NCBI GenBank assembly: GCA_037442105.1
Contig: JBBIQV010000034.1
Location: forward strand, 1-33,586
Length of the DNA: 33,586 nt
Reading direction: 5' to 3'
Source: Nitrospiraceae bacterium
GTDB taxonomy: Bacteria; Nitrospirota; Nitrospiria; Nitrospirales; Nitrospiraceae
The position numbers and the translations under genes were made by a program. Below the pieces are notes generated by a model. The model was given only the letters and a program-made list of their open reading frames with translations. It was not told the DNA's origin and did not search any database. How positions within the stretch are numbered: position 1 is the stretch's first letter; every line of letters begins with the position of its first letter. Below are positions 8,919 to 21,166 of the stretch, one piece after another.

Positions 8919-8975
8919 CGGGGTGTCCGGAGTGCCCTTCGTGCTCGCGCAGTCAAGGGCACTCCGGACACCCCG
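8919..8975. repeat. Perfect 21-bp inverted repeat
   Basis: CGGGGTGTCCGGAGTGCCCTT (8919-8939) and AAGGGCACTCCGGACACCCCG (8955-8975), 15-nt loop, no U-tract. Confidence 0.9.
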
Positions 8976-12622: not shown

Positions 12623-13842
12623 GCCGGCCGACCCTTTCTCTCGCCGGCCTTGGTTTCTTTCTCCTCGCACTTGCCGCGTGGCCGGCACCGGCGTCGGCCG
12701 AATCGGTCCGTGTGTTGCTCTCGCAGGACCTCCCTCGGCTTGAGGTGACGACACAGGACGATGCGGTGCTTGCGACCGTGAACGGCCATGAGCGCATGTT
12801 CAAAGCTCCGGTTGCGGTGGCCGTGCTCGGGGCGGGGATCAGCATAAACGGGATCAAGATGCCGGTAGCCGGTCTCACGCTCCGTCCCCTCCGGACCTGG
12901 TTGTCTCTGGCGATGAACGGGAAGACCGCCGCGTCGGCACCTTCGGCCGGTGGAAACAGCGACCTTGCCTCCAAAACGGTGCTGGAGGTCGGCGGAGTCG
13001 TCCAGATTCTTCGGCGAGGCAAAGGGCTGCTGGTGATCAATCAGGTGGATCTAGAAGAGTACGTGAAGGGCGTGGTGCCGTCGGAAGTGAATTCGGCTTG
13101 GCACCAGGAAATGCTCAAAGCGCAGGCTGTGGCGGCTCGGACCTATGCGCTCTATCTGCGTGGCCTGAGCGCGGCGCGGAACTATGACGTGGTCGCGAGT
13201 ATTCAGGACCAGGTCTATCGCGGTCGCCATGGGATCGACGGCCGGGTCGAGGAAGCGGTCGAATCGACGCGGGGTCTGGTCATTACTTATCAAGATGCGC
13301 CGATCTATGCCGCCTTCTCCTCGACGGCGGCCGGCCCAACGGAAGATGCGATGAATGTATGGGCCAAGGATTTGCCCTATCTCAAAGGGGTCGAGTGCCC
13401 ATTCGACTTGAACTCGCCCTATTACCAATGGCGCGCGTCCTTCAAGATCGACACGTTGGAACGCAATCTTCGCCAGCTTGGATTCACCGTGGGCACGATC
13501 GCCACCCTGACGCCGCTCACCCACAGCCGGGCTGGCCGCGTGGCCACCCTCAGAGTGTTGCATTCCGGCGGCGAACTGATCTTGAAAGGCGAGGACCTTC
13601 GCAAGGCTGTCGGGTACACGGTCGTGCCGAGCACGCAGTTCGCGATTGAATCCATCGGGGCGGAGATCGTGCTCACCGGCTATGGCGCGGGCCATGCCGT
13701 AGGCCTCTGCCAGTGGGGCGCGAAAGAGTTGGCCGAACTCGGCTACTCCTATATGACCATCCTTCAGTATTACTATCCAGGAACCGAATTGAAGGACGCC
13801 GCCCACACGAAACCGCCCGTGTCCGTCGTACCCACCTCCTGA
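12604..13842 (+). CDS. SpoIID/LytB-domain protein (peptidoglycan lytic transglycosylase-like)
   Basis: LEEYVKGVVPSE, LKAQAVAARTY, DQVY, GHAVGLCQWGA, ILQYYYPG; start uncertain (in-frame GTG 12604 gives a signal peptide). Confidence 0.9.
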   Translation: MALSPIGRPTLSLAGLGFFLLALAAWPAPASAESVRVLLSQDLPRLEVTTQDDAVLATVNGHERMFKAPVAVAVLGAGISINGIKMPVAGLTLRPLRTWLSLAMNGKTAASAPSAGGNSDLASKTVLEVGGVVQILRRGKGLLVINQVDLEEYVKGVVPSEVNSAWHQEMLKAQAVAARTYALYLRGLSAARNYDVVASIQDQVYRGRHGIDGRVEEAVESTRGLVITYQDAPIYAAFSSTAAGPTEDAMNVWAKDLPYLKGVECPFDLNSPYYQWRASFKIDTLERNLRQLGFTVGTIATLTPLTHSRAGRVATLRVLHSGGELILKGEDLRKAVGYTVVPSTQFAIESIGAEIVLTGYGAGHAVGLCQWGAKELAELGYSYMTILQYYYPGTELKDAAHTKPPVSVVPTS

Positions 13843-14028
13843 CCCGATGCTCTGTCGAAAGACGGTTGAAACCAGCGAAAGGAATTCCCTTGGGTTTTCG
13901 GGAAGTCGTGAAGGGTGCCCCCTTATTCCCTCTCCCTCCTTGGGCCTCGCCGGGGAGTTATCGAGCGTCAGGACTTTGAAGTCTAGCAGGCCGGACCCAC
14001 CGGGGTCTGCCACGCCGTGGTGCTGCCG

Positions 14029-14058
14029 TTGATCTGCCTATCAACGAACTTATATAAT
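14029..14058 (+). promoter_or_regulatory. Putative promoter of the RelE-like/XRE TA operon (likely leaderless)
   Basis: TTGATC, 18 nt spacer, TATAAT (14053-14058), then ATG at 14066. Confidence 0.55.
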
Positions 14059-14065
14059 GCACTTG

Positions 14066-14579
14066 ATGAAACCCCTGGAGTTTGTCGGGTCAAGCCTGGA
14101 AGACCTTAGCCCGCATTATTCATGACGGTTCGTCGCGAAATCGCGGAGCCGCGTCGCGAGAGCGGCGCGCGGAGCCCGGAGGTCCTGAGGCGTACTCGTG
14201 CAGTACGGCGAAGGACCGAGGGGCGAGCCCGCCGCCCGCAGGCTTGTCGCAGCAGCGGATCGGCGATTGCAGCAGAAGCGTTCATGAATAATGCGGGTTA
14301 GGGCGTTTCCGGCAGAAGCGCGGCGCGCAGCAGGGTTCGAGTTGGACTTTGTTCAGCGAGAACTGGACCCTTCGGATTTGGAAGCCCATGAACGAAGTAG
14401 GTACCGGTGTCCGGGAAATTCGCATCCACGTCTTGGGAGAATGGCGCGTGCTCTATGTGGCCAAATTCGCCGAGGCCGTCTACGTGCTTCATGCGTTCCA
14501 AAAGAAAACGCAGAAGACCAGAAGGGGCGATATTGAGCTGGCGCGTCAGCGGTATCGTCAGATTGGAGACCGGTCATGA
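14066..14579 (+). pseudogene. RelE/HigB-like (Gp49/DUF891-type) toxin, interrupted by a MITE and a +1 frameshift
   Basis: MKPLEFVGSSLEDL | MITE | RAFPAEARRAAGFELDFVQRELDPSD | extra T at 14377-14379 | WKPMNEVGTGVREIRI...YVLHAFQKKTQKT...; ends in an ATGA overlap with the antitoxin. Confidence 0.88.
14110..14297. mobile_element. 188-bp MITE with 16-bp perfect TIRs and 4-bp TSD
   Basis: TTAG (14106-14109) CCCGCATTATTCATGA ... TCATGAATAATGCGGG TTAG (14298-14301); removal restores CTT AGG GCG TTT (L-R-A-F). Confidence 0.9.
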
Positions 14580-14860
14580 AGAAGAACACGACGAAGTCTA
14601 GCGGCAATGTCTTTGTGGACCTCGGCTTCGATCCGGCCGAAGCCGCGGTGCTCCACATGCGAGCGAATCTCATGAGCGATCTTCGTCTCTATATCGAGAA
14701 GCACAAGCTCACCCAGTCGGAAGCGGCCAAACGTCTTGGCATTGCCCAATCACGGGTCTCCGATCTTGTGCGCGGGAAATGGGACAAGTTCAGCCTGGAA
14801 ATGCTCATCACGCTTGAAGCACGGCTCGGGCGGACCGTGCGAGTTGAATTCGCGGCGTGA
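14576..14860 (+). CDS. XRE/HTH antitoxin (HigA-like)
   Basis: SSGNVFVDLGF, LTQSEAAKRLGIAQSRVSDL.RGK...FSLEML. Confidence 0.9.
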   Translation: MKKNTTKSSGNVFVDLGFDPAEAAVLHMRANLMSDLRLYIEKHKLTQSEAAKRLGIAQSRVSDLVRGKWDKFSLEMLITLEARLGRTVRVEFAA

Positions 14861-15149
14861 TGAGTCGTGTGCGCCGCTCTTCAACCCGCACCTGCCCGCG
14901 CCCCGGCAGGCGGGTCTGTCGCACCTCCTGAAGACGATCGCCCGTGTCATGATGGCCCTCCTTGAGGGCGCACCCTAAACCGGACCGATCACGTGCTACC
15001 TACAAGCCTGGCCCACTCATTTTGACCCTCCACACTCAAGCGCCGTATTGTTATCCCACGTGCTGAACACACCAACATCGAGTCGCAGTAATCGAGCGCC
15101 CGCAACCCGCAATGTTGGATGGCAAGACCGTGACCCTGATGCTGCGCCC

Positions 15150-15305
15150 GTAACAATGCCAATGCTGTTGCCGGATCTCGTTGCCGAGCAAGTGAAGAAA
15201 GCGATGCCGATCCGTGTCATCGAGAAAGATGGGCTGCTGCGCATTCCCGCGTGCCGTGATGTGGTAGAGCGCGCCGGGGAATTCCAAGCGGAGCGAGCGG
15301 ACCAT
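15150..15305 (-). pseudogene. 5' fragment of a RAYT/IS200-like Y1 HUH transposase
   Basis: MVRSLRLEFPGALYHITARGNAQQPIFLDDTDRHRFL...HCY; similarity stops just before the expected M.NH.H HUH motif. Confidence 0.85.
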
Positions 15306-15535
15306 GAGGCCGGAGGATAGAGCGGAGGGGGTGCAAAGTCAAGAACTGACCCCCCATGGCTTGACTACACCCCTCGCAAAAGGAGAACAAGAAACGGTCT
15401 TGGCTCCTGTAAAAACCCGGCGGCGCGCCGAAAGTCAGGTCGACCAAGAACAAGGGCAAAAGTTAGAACTTGCCGATGCAGGCATGTGGCACATGTGGCA
15501 ATTGAGAAAAGAAAGAACCGAACAATCCACCGCTA

Positions 15536-16480
15536 CTATCTTTGACAGCCTGAGATAGATTGGACAACCCCCTGACCATTCAGATGAACGTTTACCGTGC
15601 CGTACGACCATACGTCATATTGATAGATACTCACGTTGCTCCTACCATCCGGCTTTCCTAGAAGCTCCGTCAATTCGGAGGGGCTCATTCCTGAGATAAT
15701 GTATCTACAAGCCTTTTGAGATCGAGATTTTACTCGCTCTTGAATTTGCATGGAGAGCCGCCTCATCTCCTGCTCACTCGCATCAAGCTTGGCTTCTGTC
15801 TCTTTGAGATAATCCATCAACGACCCACTTCGCTCGGAACGATTCATCTGCGCATTGTTCACTTGAAGCCTTGAATTGATCTGCTGCAACATCTGCTCAA
15901 CTTGCCGTTGTTGCTGATCCAATTTCGCGGCCTTCTCGCCAATTGTTACTTGCAACAGAGAAACCGATCCGAGAGTGTCCTGGATGCTCTTGGATCGGGC
16001 TTCCAATTCATGCTGCTTTTGGGCAAGAGCTTGCTGGATGGCTGTCAGCTCCTTCCGTGACTGCTCTAGAGTTTGCTCCTGGGCTCGGCTCTGTGCCTGA
16101 AGACGCTCTTGAATCACCACAAGCTTGGAAGCTGGCACTCGAAGAAGGCGGTAGATGGTGACGGTGCCGTCGGGATTAGACTCTTCATATGTCATTTGAG
16201 TTTCGACAACAAGACCCTGCGCTTCAAGGTTGGTGACTTGAGCATAATTCATCAGTTCGGTCTTACCCTGCTCGAAGGCCTGTCTTCGTCCTTCCTCAAC
16301 CGTTCGCGCTCTTGAAGCCACCCCGACGACAAACAAATCATCTCCTTCTATGAACGCTGACTTCTCGGCCCAGAATGGACGGGCATCTTTGGCAGCCCAT
16401 GTGATAGCAGTAGATAGGAGGACCGCTGTTAATACGATTTCTACAACAGAAATGGCTTTCCGCGTTTGACGTTCATTCAT
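15536..16480 (-). CDS. Hypothetical exported protein with central coiled coil
   Basis: 314-aa ORF with hydrophobic signal segment, long Q/E-rich heptads and C-terminal GMSPSELTELLGKPD..WSY (SmpA/BamE-like by eye); visibly more AT-rich than the backbone. Confidence 0.75.
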   Translation of the reverse strand: MNERQTRKAISVVEIVLTAVLLSTAITWAAKDARPFWAEKSAFIEGDDLFVVGVASRARTVEEGRRQAFEQGKTELMNYAQVTNLEAQGLVVETQMTYEESNPDGTVTIYRLLRVPASKLVVIQERLQAQSRAQEQTLEQSRKELTAIQQALAQKQHELEARSKSIQDTLGSVSLLQVTIGEKAAKLDQQQRQVEQMLQQINSRLQVNNAQMNRSERSGSLMDYLKETEAKLDASEQEMRRLSMQIQERVKSRSQKACRYIISGMSPSELTELLGKPDGRSNVSIYQYDVWSYGTVNVHLNGQGVVQSISGCQR

Positions 16481-16620
16481 GGAGTTGATTGTCTTACTGT
16501 TGAGGGGGCAAGTCTAGGCCATCTGTCAGGACCAGTCAAACAAGTGTCATTCCGTGCCCTTCGAATTACCGCCCTCGCATACTTCAGCTTCCTCGCCTTA
16601 AAAAGGCCGTTACTTAAAAA

Positions 16621-16655
16621 GCGCCGGCGACGACGACTTCTTTGCGGTCTTTTTC
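16621..16655 (-). repeat. Degenerate fourth copy of the Ppx/GppA 3'-end repeat
   Basis: Minus strand encodes EKDRKEVVVAGA; 28/35 nt match by hand to the EKSREEVIAAGA segment of the 18461 copy. Confidence 0.6.
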
Positions 16656-16701
16656 GGAACAATCAAGTGGCTCCTGGAACATTTTTCGGCTTGGAACTTT
16701 T

Positions 16702-17253
16702 TCAGCTAGCAGAATAATGAGCCCACCGCGTAATCCGGTATGCACCACCAAACACACGATGGGCAAAATAAACGCCCCGGAAACAGCCTCGATCAACGAT
16801 CCGGGATTCATCCCATGCATGTCCAAGACGAGCCACTACGTTCTTGTCGAAGAACGGATACTGAATCGAGATGATCAGATAGCCAGGCCCATATGTGTCT
16901 CGATACGGCACATAGGAGCTTTTGTTCAACTTTTCGGCAAGAAGAGTTACAAATCTCTGAACAAAATCCGCGGTGGGATTCACACATACAGCCCCATCAG
17001 GTACGGGCTTATGTGTTTCGCCTTCAGTTGCATAAGAGCAAAGGTCCCGAGCGAATGCGTCGCTCCAAAAAGCAGCAGTTACCTCTACCCATCGAGTAGT
17101 CTTCCCAGATTTGATGACCGCGTCAGGAGGATCTGGCTCATCAATAACCTTGAATTGCGAAGAATGCTGTCGATTAAACCATTCTAAAAACAAGTCTATC
17201 GTAAACTTTTCATGTGCCTTTAATACCTCCCGTCGATTCCTCCACCTTCGCAT
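16702..17253 (-). CDS. Hypothetical protein, possible PD-(D/E)xK nuclease-like fold
   Basis: 183-aa ORF (ATG 17253) with E..(helix)..PDPPD..WVEVT pattern; AT-richer than the backbone. Confidence 0.6.
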   Translation of the reverse strand: MRRWRNRREVLKAHEKFTIDLFLEWFNRQHSSQFKVIDEPDPPDAVIKSGKTTRWVEVTAAFWSDAFARDLCSYATEGETHKPVPDGAVCVNPTADFVQRFVTLLAEKLNKSSYVPYRDTYGPGYLIISIQYPFFDKNVVARLGHAWDESRIVDRGCFRGVYFAHRVFGGAYRITRWAHYSAS

Positions 17254-17498
17254 AGCGACTCTCTTCTCCAAATAATAGATGCACAGCTCATTCCTGTCGC
17301 AACCTATGCAAGCAGTCCGCAAATGTCAAAGTATTGTGTTCCAACCCCATAAACCTCGATTGTTTACGAGTACTCAAGTGGTCGAAGCTGGTCAATGTTT
17401 GAGGAGGAACTGGGCGCAGAGTGCAACTTCTGAGCATTGCGGAGCAGAAATGAGGGCCAAGCCTACACCCACACATTGCATAAGCTGATGGCCTGGCT

Positions 17499-17646
17499 TC
17501 AATGCTCTTTGATCCGCTTCGCCAGATCGATCAGCACGCCTTCCCGCAATCCCAGATCGCTGACCAGCACGTTGGACATCCCCAGCGTCTCCATGATCGT
17601 CCTAATGATAATCGCCCCGGCGGCGGTGACTTCGGCTCGGCCTCTT
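17499..17646 (-). repeat. Ppx/GppA C-terminal coding fragment, copy 1
   Basis: RGRAEVTAAGAIIIRTIMETLGMSNVLVSDLGLREGVLIDLAKRIKEH-stop; VS..GLREG is the Ppx/GppA C-terminal motif. Confidence 0.85.
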
Positions 17647-17650
17647 GCCG

Positions 17651-18066
17651 TCACGAGTTGAGCAGCGAGCGAAACTCTTCCAACGTCAGCCCCGCTTGGC
17701 GAAGCATTTCGTGAAGCAGCCACTTGGGAATGTCGCGCTTGTATTAGGAGCCTGTCCGACATGACCTTTCTACTGCGGCGAACGATCTGCGCCCATCTGC
17801 GTCGTTCTCGGCCAGAAAAAATCCTCAACGTATTCCAGCGAATACGCCTCCGGTTTTTTCGGGCCTGCGGCCTCGCATATGCCCGCACATCCTTGGCCTC
17901 GTCACGAACGGCAATGTCGGACAGGCTCCTGATGGCTGATCCGGACTCGCAGAATCGACCCGTTCGGCAGGAACTTTCGCCAGGTTTCGTGTTTTTCCGA
18001 TCGGAGATGTTCGAACCCCGCCCGCTTGAGCACAACACGGAAATCGTTATACGTGAACGCGGCCAT
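17651..18066 (-). pseudogene. HicA-family toxin interrupted by a MITE
   Basis: Removing 185 nt restores 76 aa: MAAFTYNDFRVVLKRAGFEHLRSEKHETW...VRISHQYKRDIPKWLLHEMLRQAGLTLEEFRSLLNS. Confidence 0.85.
17747..17929. mobile_element. 183-bp MITE with 16-bp perfect TIRs
   Basis: GGAGCCTGTCCGACAT ... ATGTCGGACAGGCTCC flanked by TA / TG (imperfect 2-bp duplication); removal restores the HicA frame. Confidence 0.88.
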
Positions 18067-18388
18067 GCTTGATCTCGATCAGCGTCCGCATCTCCCAATC
18101 GGTCTTACAAGCGGCAATGGCCTCGACATAGGGTAAATGGTGGGCTCGGTTAGGACTGGCGGCGTACCGATCGCGGTCGTGGAGATACTCCTTCGCATAG
18201 TCCTGAATAGCTTCAATTAAATCTTCCAGCGCGGCTTCGGCGGTGGGAAGTTCTGTTACGAGATCCAATTCGGGACACTTGGCACAGTAGTGCCCGTTGT
18301 CCTTCGCAAGAAGAACCGTCAGAAGAGGCTCCGCAACCATAATCTTTGGCTCCTTTGCCCGACGACGGGTCATCCTTGAAATTGCCAT
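18047..18388 (-). CDS. HicB-like antitoxin
   Basis: YCAKCPELDLVTELPTAEAALEDLIEAI HicB-like segment; GGAGG SD; overlaps the HicA start; TTGCTG-17-TACAAT promoter at 18441-18413. Confidence 0.75.
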   Translation of the reverse strand: MAISRMTRRRAKEPKIMVAEPLLTVLLAKDNGHYCAKCPELDLVTELPTAEAALEDLIEAIQDYAKEYLHDRDRYAASPNRAHHLPYVEAIAACKTDWEMRTLIEIKHGRVHV

Positions 18389-18460
18389 GATGGGTTCCTC
18401 CCAACAAGCTCCATTGTAGTCCACCGCTCACGTGTCAGCAACTGCGCCCTACTTCCTTGC

Positions 18461-18630
18461 TCACTGATTTTCAATTCGCTTCGCCAAGTCAATCAATACT
18501 CCTTCTCTCAACCCCAAATCGCTGACCAACACGCCGGCCATGCCCAACGTCTCCATCACCGTCCGGAGAATGACGGCGCCGGCGGCGATGACTTCCTCGC
18601 GGCTCTTTTCCAACTCTGGCAGACCGACCA
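18461..18630 (-). repeat. Ppx/GppA C-terminal coding fragment, copy 2
   Basis: VGLPELEKSREEVIAAGAVILRTVMETLGMAGVLVSDLGLREGVLIDLAKRIENQ-stop. Confidence 0.87.
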
Positions 18631-18652
18631 TCGCTAGTGGCCACAATCAAGG

Positions 18653-18919
18653 CTAGGCAATTGTTCTCCGGCGCATAGCTTTATCAAGGTCGTACGTGGC
18701 TTGGAGATTCATCCAGAGCTTCGCAGAAGTGCCCAGGACACGCGCCAGATCCAGAGCCGAGTCCGCCGTAATATCGCGCTTGCCCTTAATCAGCTCGTTT
18801 AGACGTGCCCGCGTCCAGCCAAGCTTCTCGGCCAGCGCAGCTTGGGTCATCTTTCCAGGAACAAGAAACTCTTCAAGCAGCATCTCGCCAGGATGGAAGG
18901 GGTTTTTAGGTAGTCTCAT
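18653..18919 (-). CDS. higA: HigA/VapI-family antitoxin
   Basis: HPGEMLLEEFL, TQAALAEKLG, NELIKGKRDIT, WMNLQ..YDL; AGGAGG SD before ATG 18919. Confidence 0.92.
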   Translation of the reverse strand: MRLPKNPFHPGEMLLEEFLVPGKMTQAALAEKLGWTRARLNELIKGKRDITADSALDLARVLGTSAKLWMNLQATYDLDKAMRRRTIA

Positions 18920-18946
18920 CGCTCGCACCTCCTGATATCCCACATC

Positions 18947-19237
18947 TCAGTGATAATCGATGACTTGAACCTCATAGGCATTGCCGGCGTGCCAGCGAAA
19001 GACAACCCGCCATCGATCGTTGACCCGAATGGAGTGAAAGCCCTTCCATTCACCCTTCAATGCCTCCAGCCGATTCCCAGGAGGCTCACGAAGATCGCTG
19101 ATCTCAGCCGCATCATGCAAATAGAGCAGCTTTCGACGAGCGGCTCGAATCAAATCCGGTGGAAAGCGCAGGACGGCTTTCGATCGCCGATCATCGAACA
19201 AGTCTTCTGCAAGCCGATTGGCAAAAGATTCAATCAC
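18947..19237 (-). CDS. higB: HigB (plasmid maintenance killer type) toxin
   Basis: MIESF, DLREPPGNRLEALKG, HSIRVNDRWRVVFRW, VIDYH; appears intact. Confidence 0.92.
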   Translation of the reverse strand: MIESFANRLAEDLFDDRRSKAVLRFPPDLIRAARRKLLYLHDAAEISDLREPPGNRLEALKGEWKGFHSIRVNDRWRVVFRWHAGNAYEVQVIDYH

Positions 19238-19243
19238 GGAACG

Positions 19244-19272
19244 ATGTTATCGAACATCGATAACTCACGCAA
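19244..19272 (-). promoter_or_regulatory. higBA promoter with palindromic operator
   Basis: Minus-strand TTGCGT, 17 nt spacer, TAACAT ending 6 nt before the GTG; perfect GTTATCGA-ACA-TCGATAAC palindrome at 19246-19264. Confidence 0.7.
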
Positions 19273-19308
19273 GAGGGAACCGGACAGCCCCCATCCTCGG
19301 CGCACCAA

Positions 19309-19446
19309 TCACACCAAGCGGCTCGACAGATCAATCAGGACCCCCTCGCGCAATCCTAGATCACTGACCAGCACCGCCGATATTCCCAGCGTCTCCATCA
19401 TCTTGCGAACAATGATCGCGCCACCGGCGATGACCTGTTTACGGTC
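19309..19446 (-). repeat. Ppx/GppA C-terminal coding fragment, copy 3
   Basis: DRKQVIAGGAIIVRKMMETLGISAVLVSDLGLREGVLIDLSSRLV-stop. Confidence 0.85.
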
Positions 19447-19475
19447 TGATGGCCTCAAGAATTGAGCAGTAATTA

Positions 19476-19679
19476 GGGGTCTTGCAACCACACATTCGGT
19501 CGTCCCCGCGCGCGCTTGTTCTCCCATGTCCTGTCGTTTCGGCTGTCTTCAACCCTTTCTCACAGATCGCCGCTGATTTCTCGGTGCCTTTATTGGCGAA
19601 TTCGATAAGATTCACGAGCAGGTCGTCTGGTAGGTGTATCGGAAAAAGAGGCGAATGTATGATTGCAAGACCTGACCCC
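19476..19679. repeat. ~200-bp segment bounded by inverted copies of the RAYT-linked motif
   Basis: GGGGTCTTGCAACCACACATTCG (19476-19498) and CGAATGTATGATTGCAAGACCTGACCCC (19652-19679). Confidence 0.65.
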
Positions 19680-19761
19680 ATTTAGCGTGCGCATTTAGAA
19701 GCGGGAAGCGTTAGGTGATGCGGCCTTGATCTTTCCTGCTTCCCAGGCTACCCTTCAACAC

Positions 19762-19989
19762 ATGGATTGGAAGAATCGCATTACCATTGATCCCGAGAAG
19801 CGTGGCGGCAAGCCGTGTATTCGTGGGCTTCGCATGACCGTGTATGACGTTCTGGAGTACCTTGCTTCCGGCATGAGCGAAGAAGAGATTCTCAAGGACT
19901 TTCCCGATCTCACCCGTGAAGACATCCGGGCCTGTCTGGCCTTTGCAGCGGAGAGAGAGCGGAAGCTTGTGTCGATTCCACCGTCGTGA
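19762..19989 (+). CDS. DUF433-family antitoxin
   Basis: RITIDPEKRGGKPCIRGLRMTVYDVLEYLASGMSEEEILKDFPDLTREDIRACLAFAA; TTGATC-17-TACCCT promoter 7 nt upstream. Confidence 0.92.
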   Translation: MDWKNRITIDPEKRGGKPCIRGLRMTVYDVLEYLASGMSEEEILKDFPDLTREDIRACLAFAAERERKLVSIPPS

Positions 19990-20062
19990 AGCTGCTCTTC
20001 GATCAAAACCTCTCTCATCGACTCGTTACAGCCCTGCAGGAAGCATATCCCAACCCAGATAA
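19986..20062 (+). pseudogene. Truncated DUF5615/PIN-like toxin
   Basis: GTGA overlap with DUF433; MKLLFDQNLSHRLVTALQEAYPN, then similarity ends at the repeat motif at 20063; frame stops at 20144. Confidence 0.8.
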
Positions 20063-20149
20063 GGGTCAGGCGTTGCCATACAACATGTTCTCGTTCACAC
20101 TCTCGATCAACCGTAGGTGTTGTTGCGAGACCCCGATTCTCTGACGCGC

Positions 20150-21166
20150 ATGTTGCTGTCCGAGTTCGATTTTCCTTTCGATCCTTCCCTCGTTGCGACC
20201 GAACCGGTGATTCCCCGCGATCACGCGCGTTTGCTGGTCGTCGACCGGCATGGCGGACCGGTGCGCCATCAGCGCGTGGCCGACCTCCCTCAATTATTGA
20301 AGCGAGGAGATCTCCTCGTCGTGAACGACACCAAAGTCCTCGCCGCTCGGATGATGGGAAGGAAACGGCCCGGCGGGGGAGTCGTCGAGCTGTTGTTCGT
20401 GCGCGAGATCAAGCCCGATCTCTGGGAAGTGCTGATGAGGGGAACATGCCGGCCTGGTCAGATCATCGACCTCGATGGGGACGCGCGCGCACACGTGGTT
20501 GAGCGCGGGATATCATGCGTCGTTCGAATCGAAAGCGCCTGCCCGGTGCGGGAACTGTTCCAACGCGCGGGACACATGCCGCTGCCGCCCTATATTAAGC
20601 GGTCTCCCACTGATGCTGATCGCCTGTGGTATCAAACCCTGTTTGCGCGAGAAGACGGCGCGATTGCCGCGCCCACCGCCGGGCTTCACTTCACGCCTCG
20701 GTTGATTGAAGCGCTGCGCGGCACCGGCGTACAACTGGCGACTATCACGCTCCATGTTGGGCTGGGGACGTTCAAGCCGGTCACCGCGGAGCGCATCGAG
20801 GAGCATCGGATGGATGCCGAGGTGGTGGAGGTACCGGCGCAGACGGTTCACATGATTCGAGAGACGAAAGCGGCAGGAAGTCGGGTGGTGGCGGTCGGGA
20901 CCACGACGGTCCGTGCACTCGAGTCGGCTGCAAAGGAGGAGGGTGCATTACGACCGTTTCAGGGAAACACGAACCTGTTTGTTGTGCCCGGCTATGCGTT
21001 TCGAGTTGTGGACGCCCTGATGACCAACTTTCATCACCCTCGCACGACGTTGCTTATGCTGGTGTCGGCGCTGACGGGAGTGGAGCGTCTGCGAGAAGCC
21101 TACCGGACAGCGATCGAGGCCCGCTATCGATTCTACAGCTACGGGGATGCGATGCTGATTCTTTAG
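20150..21166 (+). CDS. queA: S-adenosylmethionine:tRNA ribosyltransferase-isomerase
   Basis: VNDTKV, PLPPYI, YQT, AAPTAGLHFT, LHVGLGTF, VGTT, TNFH, YRFYSYGDAM. Confidence 0.97.
   Translation: MLLSEFDFPFDPSLVATEPVIPRDHARLLVVDRHGGPVRHQRVADLPQLLKRGDLLVVNDTKVLAARMMGRKRPGGGVVELLFVREIKPDLWEVLMRGTCRPGQIIDLDGDARAHVVERGISCVVRIESACPVRELFQRAGHMPLPPYIKRSPTDADRLWYQTLFAREDGAIAAPTAGLHFTPRLIEALRGTGVQLATITLHVGLGTFKPVTAERIEEHRMDAEVVEVPAQTVHMIRETKAAGSRVVAVGTTTVRALESAAKEEGALRPFQGNTNLFVVPGYAFRVVDALMTNFHHPRTTLLMLVSALTGVERLREAYRTAIEARYRFYSYGDAMLIL

Follow-up and report, generated by a model that had tools for sequence, protein, structure and literature searches.

Toxin-antitoxin cassettes and displaced gene ends between ppx and a facing methyltransferase-like gene in Nitrospiraceae

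Introduction

Insertion with long target duplication brings in cargo that lacks a mobility gene and leaves a long direct repeat of variable length, single at the empty site; the repeats often span a start or stop codon and the target gene is left intact (Furuta et al. 2010, PMC2853133). The DNA studied here, a stretch of 33,586 nucleotides from a Nitrospiraceae bacterium (contig JBBIQV010000034.1 of assembly GCA_037442105.1; hereafter the window), carries an array in which small cargo genes alternate with copies of the 3' end of ppx, a Ppx/GppA phosphatase gene. We call these copies tails. In relatives, such arrays lie between ppx and a facing gene, c0. This ppx-c0 hotspot has the repeat of variable length above 30 bp, the insert below 20 kb and the lack of a mobility gene known from long target duplication. 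The known cases, however, are single restriction-modification insertions, whereas here insertion is serial, with up to five tails of one gene per locus, two anchor genes face each other and cassettes are common to several genera. Since the cargo is mostly toxin-antitoxin (only two Mrr-type nucleases among 102 scanned array proteins), the hotspot works like long target duplication without being a restriction-modification insertion. Nobusato et al. 2000 is reportedly a further reference for this kind of insertion.

A second precedent is the displacement of gene tips. In Rhs genes a new C-terminal tip pushes the old one downstream (Jackson et al. 2009, PMC2935791), and in effector-immunity loci of the type VI secretion system the old tip is likewise moved downstream by the new one (Kirchberger et al. 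2017, PMC5361080). The resulting arrays keep core fragments of variable length, and either homologous recombination with circles or illegitimate recombination facilitated by homology has been proposed as the engine (PMC2935791, PMC5361080). At the ppx-c0 hotspot, too, the old tip is kept downstream behind a core fragment of variable length. In the Rhs and type VI loci, by contrast, a toxin gene serves as anchor and its exchanged tip as payload, whereas here the anchors are ppx, the methyltransferase-like c0, purL and uvrA, none of them a polymorphic toxin gene, the tip amounts to a few codons and the payload sits in a gene of its own.

Neisseria minimal mobile elements consist of variable genes between two conserved genes, swapped by flanking homologous recombination (PMC3787668). 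The ppx-c0 interval also holds variable content between two conserved genes, and exchange in the flanks may be hinted at by tips that travel with cargo and by cargo more conserved than ppx; what is described for the minimal elements is replacement, whereas here we find addition with duplicated gene ends. The arrays resemble those of integrons in their co-oriented, gene-sized cassettes, rich in toxin-antitoxin genes, added at one end and varied in order. They differ from them in having no attC, attI (for which no scan was made), linked integrase or fixed crossover, and in cassettes that carry anchor-gene homology. In additive flexible genomic islands a duplicated tRNA gene 3' end marks integration, which is attributed to site-directed recombination (PMC5217437); here, unlike in those islands as described, the ends are protein-coding and the junctions scattered, and the fixed crossover position of integrase islands in gene 3' ends is not seen. 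Our literature search, which left most subscription journals outside, found nothing on the ppx-c0 locus or on serial tails of housekeeping genes with toxin-antitoxin cargo.

The tails are thus a striking form of a known recombination scar, of a known class of mechanism, and not a new integron. What is new is the two-front, head-and-tail, family-wide form, with filled and empty locus pairs that make the mechanism testable. Integrase-free growth of additive cassette arrays is still argued from genome comparisons; filled and empty pairs, opposed fronts, a control in purL gene starts and cross-genus cassettes allow models based on circles, on illegitimate joining and on enzymes acting in trans to be separated. 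The hotspot also marks an exchange of toxin-antitoxin and defence genes among nitrifiers, and gene-end fragments offer a simple signature for locating such hotspots.

Results and discussion

Cassette arrays between ppx and c0

Loci of relatives (L numbers; C numbers are contigs) were pooled from a first search (10), genomes with at least two matches (20), single-match genomes taken by score (20) and similarity to one window tail, tail2 (56). This sample is enriched and non-random, since it was picked partly by multiple matches and by tail2 similarity. Removal of duplicates left 85 relatives' ppx ends, and weak hits in L075, L095 and L101 were left out of the tail counts. Most ppx genes are convergent with c0, whose product of about 496 amino acids is conserved in Nitrospiraceae, carries a class I methyltransferase domain and matches no family above cut-off. 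In this family the interval between the two is either empty or filled with small cassettes: the 63 complete intervals, from about 0 to 9.5 kb, comprise 21 empty ones (<600 nt) and 42 filled ones. Tails of ppx occur in 12, those of c0 in 18 and either kind in 24, with up to five c0 tails per locus. The cargo-plus-tail arrays that an earlier note, made from the window alone, had expected behind intact ppx genes are present, with downstream ppx tails at 19 of the 85 distinct loci in this enriched sample; the 20 single-match picks yielded no ppx tail but five c0 tails. Arrays occur in single-contig genomes too (L045, L046).

The cassettes measure 0.35-1.9 kb and the tails about 50-170 nt. Cargo includes HigBA, HicA, HEPN/MNT, PIN, RES, Mrr, TIR, HNH and adenosine deaminase genes. 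As the same note had anticipated, the same cassettes appear in different orders: they recur across genera, and hicBA and higA are found in both orders. Cargo of this genome is 76-87% identical in DNA to that of relatives whose ppx genes are 67-72% identical to its own. With antisense shadow frames left out, 30 of 31 labelled recurrent cargo families lie on the ppx strand. GC skew is positive on that strand in 63/63 loci, so that the polarity of the cargo may reflect a leading-strand bias. Four arrays (L109, L058, L083, L091) share as cargo a gene of 620-790 amino acids from the PF10136 'site-specific recombinase' family, whose members are presumably membrane proteins not known to act as recombinases.

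A DNA search for c0 tails that scored seven candidates per genome revealed additional copies in at least 7 of 82 relatives. A spoIID C-terminal query run as a control gave one match per genome in 26/26 and no extra copies, and generic gene-end noise was rejected as the source of tails on this ground. In this genus c0 (C28:203-1699 in this genome; L134:10226-11959) no longer faces ppx, yet in one congeneric genome (G001) a tail lies 1.1 kb away from the intact c0. An integrase-like fragment adjoins the c0 3' end at C28:1-100, at the contig end.

Displacement of the old gene end

Comparison of filled and empty loci bears out the displacement that the earlier note had proposed, in which each tail is the old gene end and the intact gene gains a new tip. 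The L045 locus equals the L059 locus plus an 812-nt insert, with flanks 85% and 92% identical. Six filled/empty pairs were chosen by eye for a closer look: beyond the conserved motif, the next 45 nt resemble the empty relative in 6/6 (11-21 sites versus 1-4), and the 90 coding nt ahead of the motif resemble the genome's own ppx in 5/6. In L045/L059 and five more pairs, the long direct repeat (>30 bp) is single at the relative's empty site. Gene tips group with the cargo that follows them, at intact gene ends and at tails alike: the tip of tail2 matches the ppx or tail tip ahead of hicB in L046, L061, L066, L094 and L050, and the endings of the L045 and L044 tails resemble those of the intact genes in L059/L097 and L109. 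The comparison shows, then, that when a cassette is gained the new last codons and spacer arrive with it, while the old end, together with whatever lay behind it, moves downstream as a 60-170-nt tail.

The body of the tails follows the host. Compared with their own anchor, the relatives' ppx tails rank it in the top 10% of 86 ppx ends in 11 of 20 cases and in the top half in all 20; for c0 tails the figures are 22 and 34 of 34, against 64 ends. A c0 tail in L044 is even 98.5% identical to its own gene, a near-identical repeat that is presumably young, and L034 is named as a similar case. The repeat therefore seems to be made from, or refreshed by, host sequence, even at junctions shared across genera, such as the hicBA junction common to L034, L094, one window tail (tail1) and contig C50. 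The arrays have two growth fronts, with ppx tails stacking at the ppx side and c0 tails at the c0 side: wherever a locus has both kinds (9/9), and in the window as well, one meets the ppx tails first and the c0 tails after them when coming from the ppx side. This order favours addition at each anchor. Taken together, duplication, displacement, cassette-specific joints, two fronts and cross-genus sharing are the features that genome comparison shows.

Heads and tails of other genes

The earlier note had taken ppx to be the one target gene, which no longer holds: the pattern extends to c0 tails, purL heads and a uvrA tail. For this genome we used the local-repeat scan, because a blast search with heads, tails and middles was swamped by repeats (78, 73 and 57 genes). 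The interval from purQ to purL at C6:65309-69000 (L155) holds toxin-antitoxin cassettes set apart by three copies of the purL start. One of these head reading frames ends overlapping the start codon of the next gene, which suggests translational coupling of the head to that gene. Extra purL heads occur in 13 of 102 relatives with a match; in the five of the 13 that were read, their junctions are cassette-specific and common to several genera. At C14:56494-57568 (L156) uvrA is followed by a small two-gene cassette, which reads like an antitoxin-toxin pair, and then by a 129-nt uvrA tail, 88% identical. A tail of an M28-like peptidase gene and other gene-end duplications are also present in this genome; apart from profile matches, the gene names at loci of the purL, uvrA and peptidase type are those we presume from the sequences.

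Gene-end duplications around small cargo lie at C36:11661-12569, C6:86039-87595, C54:6930-8194, C53:2943-4213, C14:3643-6056 and C13:1767-3522, and these six loci include a peptidase tail, a tail around a Fic-like gene, a radical-SAM-like head, hsdM heads and a tail, and an Rhs-like repeat.

Tails in the window

In the window the order of tails and cargo, their coordinates and their shared orientation on the minus strand are as the earlier note described, and its identification of the tails as ppx ends stands: tails 1-3 match Pfam Ppx-GppA from positions 236/241 to 282/284 of 285. With a DNA profile of the ppx 3' end these three score 97-139 bits, whereas tail0 reaches 17.4 bits (E=0.00088 genome-wide). 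Across the whole genome, only the intact gene on C6, the window's four tails and another, fifth one on C50 match below E=0.4; the next, non-ppx match has E=0.42. On the minus strand, tail3 (19309..19447) has its junction at about profile position 186, directly after an element bounded by repetitive extragenic palindromic (REP) sequences; tail2 (18461..18628) has it at about 163 and tail1 (17499..17649) at about 180-188, just past the hicA stop. Tail0 (16619..16656) is a 38-nt remnant, profile 183-220, that now forms a hairpin followed by a T run. Tails are mutually 68-75% identical. Tails 2, 1 and 0 do start soon after a cargo stop, with gaps of about 24, 4 and 46 nt. The starts of the four tails, described as falling at nearly one codon, are close but not identical, at profile positions 163, 180, 181 and 186.

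Two c0 tails in the window had been overlooked. The first (13871..14033, minus strand) is degenerate and covers profile 454-586 (37.8 bits, E=3e-10), and the second (15397..15473, plus strand; profile 517-592, 18.8 bits, E=0.00017) is convergent with a cargo open reading frame of 314 codons, ORF314. The block of ORF314, c0 tail and junction recurs in L064. Terminator-like hairpins with T runs on the cargo strand occur in tail0 (16622-16635) and in the right c0 tail (15416-15432). The idea of c0 tails as selected terminators was dropped, because tails keep hairpin and T run no better than intact genes: by a crude count on the c0 cargo strand, at least four T follow the hairpin in 11/42 tails versus 20/63 intact genes.

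A displaced piece of a foreign array

The whole 6.3-kb insert (13843..20149) lies between the spoIID stop and the queA start. Window positions 13842 and 20150 map to a single base, L139:11924, of a genome of the same genus, and spoIID and queA, whose adjacency was taken from blastn rows, are about 50 nt or less apart in 14/14 relatives fetched. Every insert gene tested except ORF183 (a second cargo reading frame) and a DUF433 gene has homologues behind ppx in relatives. Given this location and these homologues, the window holds an imported, orphaned piece of array: its copy derives from another lineage's ppx-c0 hotspot and now sits at spoIID-queA. The spoIID-stop/queA-start junction is present, on the plus strand, as a right copy at 20141..20163, which runs into the queA start codon at 20150, and as an apparent, degenerate left copy of about 20 nt at 13839..13858, recognized by eye. 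With an end repeat of about 20 nt, the window's own site lacks the long direct repeat (>30 bp) of the home loci.

The earlier note had the array grow by integration in this genome's own ppx. That gene (C6:49820-50788) ends 17 nt from a convergent sensor kinase gene, and no cargo was found behind it, which rules out growth there. The gene shares 64-68% identity with the four longer tails, of which three lie in the window and one on C50, and in similarity to them it ranks only 77th-83rd among 86 ppx ends. The C50 tail belongs to an orphan scrap (C50:3604-3835) that joins a hicA end, the same hicA as in the window, to the fifth ppx tail between REP-like repeats. Another orphan scrap of array, at C6:88236-88281, is a short c0 tail beside a MazE/MazF-like remnant. 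Two recG-ppx regions (G001:C60 and G001:C1), possibly contamination, were seen in a genome of the same genus.

Junctions, mechanism and alternatives

Change-point calls gave 25 ppx junctions, of which two misplaced inside higA (L122, L044) were dropped, and 45 c0 junctions. A single integration site with a shared 5' breakpoint, as the earlier note envisaged, is contradicted by their positions, which are cassette-specific and extend over profile positions 162-273 in ppx and 421-553 in c0, a spread of more than 110 nt and of 130 nt, with groups that follow the cassette; scatter of this kind is what the note itself had named as refuting its proposal. Upstream of the called junction there is often degraded anchor sequence, so that the original joints may lie further 5'. 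Inspection by eye revealed no core common to the junctions. Two candidate motifs, CTTGA ahead of tails and CTGGAAAAG, which both anchors contain, caught the eye and were discarded, being absent from most junctions. The junction clusters appear to overlap the most strongly folding 28-nt windows, an impression open to profile bias.

We favour, with a probability of about 0.6, a scheme in which one-off illegitimate joints are followed by spread through homologous recombination with gene-end duplication, the window holding a displaced foreign piece. The founding junction would arise once per cassette, by an illegitimate joint in the anchor gene end, with homology in the same gene anchoring the other side. 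The unit of tip, cargo and junction would then spread between strains and genera by homologous recombination with the recipient gene end, through a looped-out circle or two crossovers and with no dedicated recombinase. DNA uptake, for which ComEC is encoded in 17 of 18 family genomes, probably precedes this spread. The geometry would survive because the anchor stays intact and no resident toxin-antitoxin pair is deleted; addiction and anchor integrity may thus select for duplication, and looping-out should be rare for short, diverged repeats. Arrival at spoIID-queA may have involved ectopic recombination through shared cargo or through REP sequences and miniature inverted-repeat transposable elements (MITEs). 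Ku was not found in this 87%-complete genome.

Several observations weigh against this scheme. The evidence comes from genome comparison throughout, no event having been observed, and the genomes are kin, so that counts overstate independence. The own-gene signal is absent from the coding part of the pair L043/L033, and an age gradient along the arrays was inconsistent across the loci examined. Junctions of different cassettes cluster at ppx 179-190 and c0 529-536, which eroded upstream anchor sequence and profile bias can explain. This genome encodes an intact integron integrase elsewhere (C39:23652-24929; TIGR02249, 470 bits) and Y1 transposases, none of them tied to recurrent cassettes. REP-like motifs occur at 5/20 ppx junctions versus 3% (40/1220) of random array windows. 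ComEC, finally, was not found in the window's own, 87%-complete genome.

A far bolder proposal, which we consider doubtful, is a Nitrospiraceae-wide, integrase-free equivalent of the integron. Here 60-170-nt ends or starts of core genes (ppx, c0, purL, uvrA and others) would serve as homing arms, and a pool of toxin-antitoxin and defence cassettes would circulate between genera as arm-plus-cargo circles. A dedicated activity would duplicate gene boundaries often, at structured G+C-rich spots, and heads and tails would be kept for translational coupling or as terminators.

Tails could also be leftovers of the opposite anchor, if a donor recombined at one gene and was joined illegitimately inside the other, or if a large duplication was trimmed by deletion. 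Standard homology-facilitated illegitimate recombination would suffice for this, the upper size limit would be explained, and c0 tails are present at L038, a ppx locus without intact c0. Such leftovers, however, should put each kind of tail closest to the other gene, c0 tails by ppx and ppx tails by c0, the opposite of what all nine loci with both show; no back-to-back c0/ppx double tail was seen, and purL heads before purL and a uvrA tail behind uvrA would go unexplained. We regard this origin as improbable.

It is similarly unlikely that a site-specific recombinase acting in trans, for example the integron integrase of this genome, inserts mini-cassettes at an att site in ppx. Besides that intact gene, an integron integrase and attC behind ppx in L123, the partial clustering of junctions, which an enzyme of relaxed specificity could also yield, and the placement of nearly all recurrent cargo families on one strand would fit such an enzyme. 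Against it stand the spread of junctions without a common core by eye, the use of at least four unrelated anchors, by heads as well as tails, and a polarity explicable by leading-strand bias. A heuristic attC scan, stricter than a covariance model would be and negative also around the C39 integrase, gave a single site in 238,696 bases of arrays and no site within the window insert; attC cassette arrays were set aside as a candidate, the scan being essentially without sites. IntI matches occur at two of the searched loci (L123, L034) and not in the window, and among the 102 scanned array proteins an integron integrase turned up once and transposases five times, in each case outside the recurrent cassettes bounded by tails. 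The recombinase in trans of the earlier note thus finds no positive evidence, while homologous recombination, which it gave as an alternative in brackets, fits best.

In another version that seems hardly probable, a REP-associated Y1 (HUH) transposase would nick REP hairpins to make the founding joints, which homologous recombination would then spread. The excess of REP-like motifs at ppx junctions points this way, as do tail3 abutting a REP-bounded element and a RAYT-like fragment in the insert. The motif list, however, was chosen from these same loci, three of the five matches are one cassette or its kin, the motif is found at only 3/45 c0 junctions, and the commonest ppx cassettes (higBA, hicBA) lack it at their junctions.

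A chimeric assembly of several strains' ppx loci, to which a metagenome-derived, incomplete genome with tails unlike its own ppx might point, is very improbable, because tails with 68-75% identity differ too much to collapse, blocks occur in the same order in independent genomes (higBA-tail-hicB in L061, ORF314-c0 tail in L064), MITEs of two families, present in this genome in 10 and 12 copies, interrupt the cargo, and arrays exist in the single-contig genomes L045 and L046.

Cargo and repeats of the insert

On the minus strand, higB (18947-19237) and higA (18653-18919) form a module at 18653..19237 with homologues of 88-96% amino acid identity behind ppx in relatives. The module that the earlier note called hicB-hicA does include a hicA-like toxin gene (17651..18066, minus strand; intact homologues in L034, L036, L094 and L096), but this gene is split by a MITE, and the 'hicB' partner (18047..18388, minus strand), with homologues of 83-89% amino acid identity directly behind ppx or a tail in relatives, matches PHD_like PF12910 as its antitoxin. 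Nor are the promoters of their own that had been ascribed to both modules confirmed, since a consensus scan gave no sigma-70 match directly upstream of higB or hicB. ORF183 (16702..17253, minus strand) has no Pfam or NCBIfam match; the ESM Atlas offers look-alikes that are hypothetical proteins, and DUF1780, at 0.91, is a lead there. ORF314 (15536..16480, minus strand), a coiled-coil protein gene with a hydrophobic N-terminus and no family above cut-off, has a homologue of 64% amino acid identity in the L064 array. On the plus strand, 14066..14860 holds a Gp49/RelE-like toxin gene, also split by a MITE, and an HTH_37 antitoxin gene, both assigned by Pfam; this is a common cassette of ppx-c0 arrays, with homologues of 80-94% amino acid identity there. 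A DUF433 gene and the apparent start of a partner gene, the latter read from sequence only, precede queA (19756..20110, plus strand).

The MITE that splits hicA (17745-17931, 187 nt) is present in the genome in 10 near-full copies, most of which have TA(G) at their flanks, and its terminal inverted repeats begin GGAGCCTGTCCG. The one in the Gp49/RelE-like gene (14104-14303, about 200 nt) has long inverted ends and 12 near-full copies. Two of the three toxins of the insert are thus knocked out, their antitoxins being intact. The REP-bounded, MITE-like element ahead of tail3 (19477..19683) has three near-full genome copies. A Y1 transposase fragment with a REP-like repeat (15051..15362, minus strand), presumably RAYT-like, is 83% identical in amino acids to C59:1016-1171, which overlaps a PF01797 match. 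Elsewhere in the window, a perfect 21-bp inverted repeat lies at 8919-8975, between a cupin-like gene and leuB.

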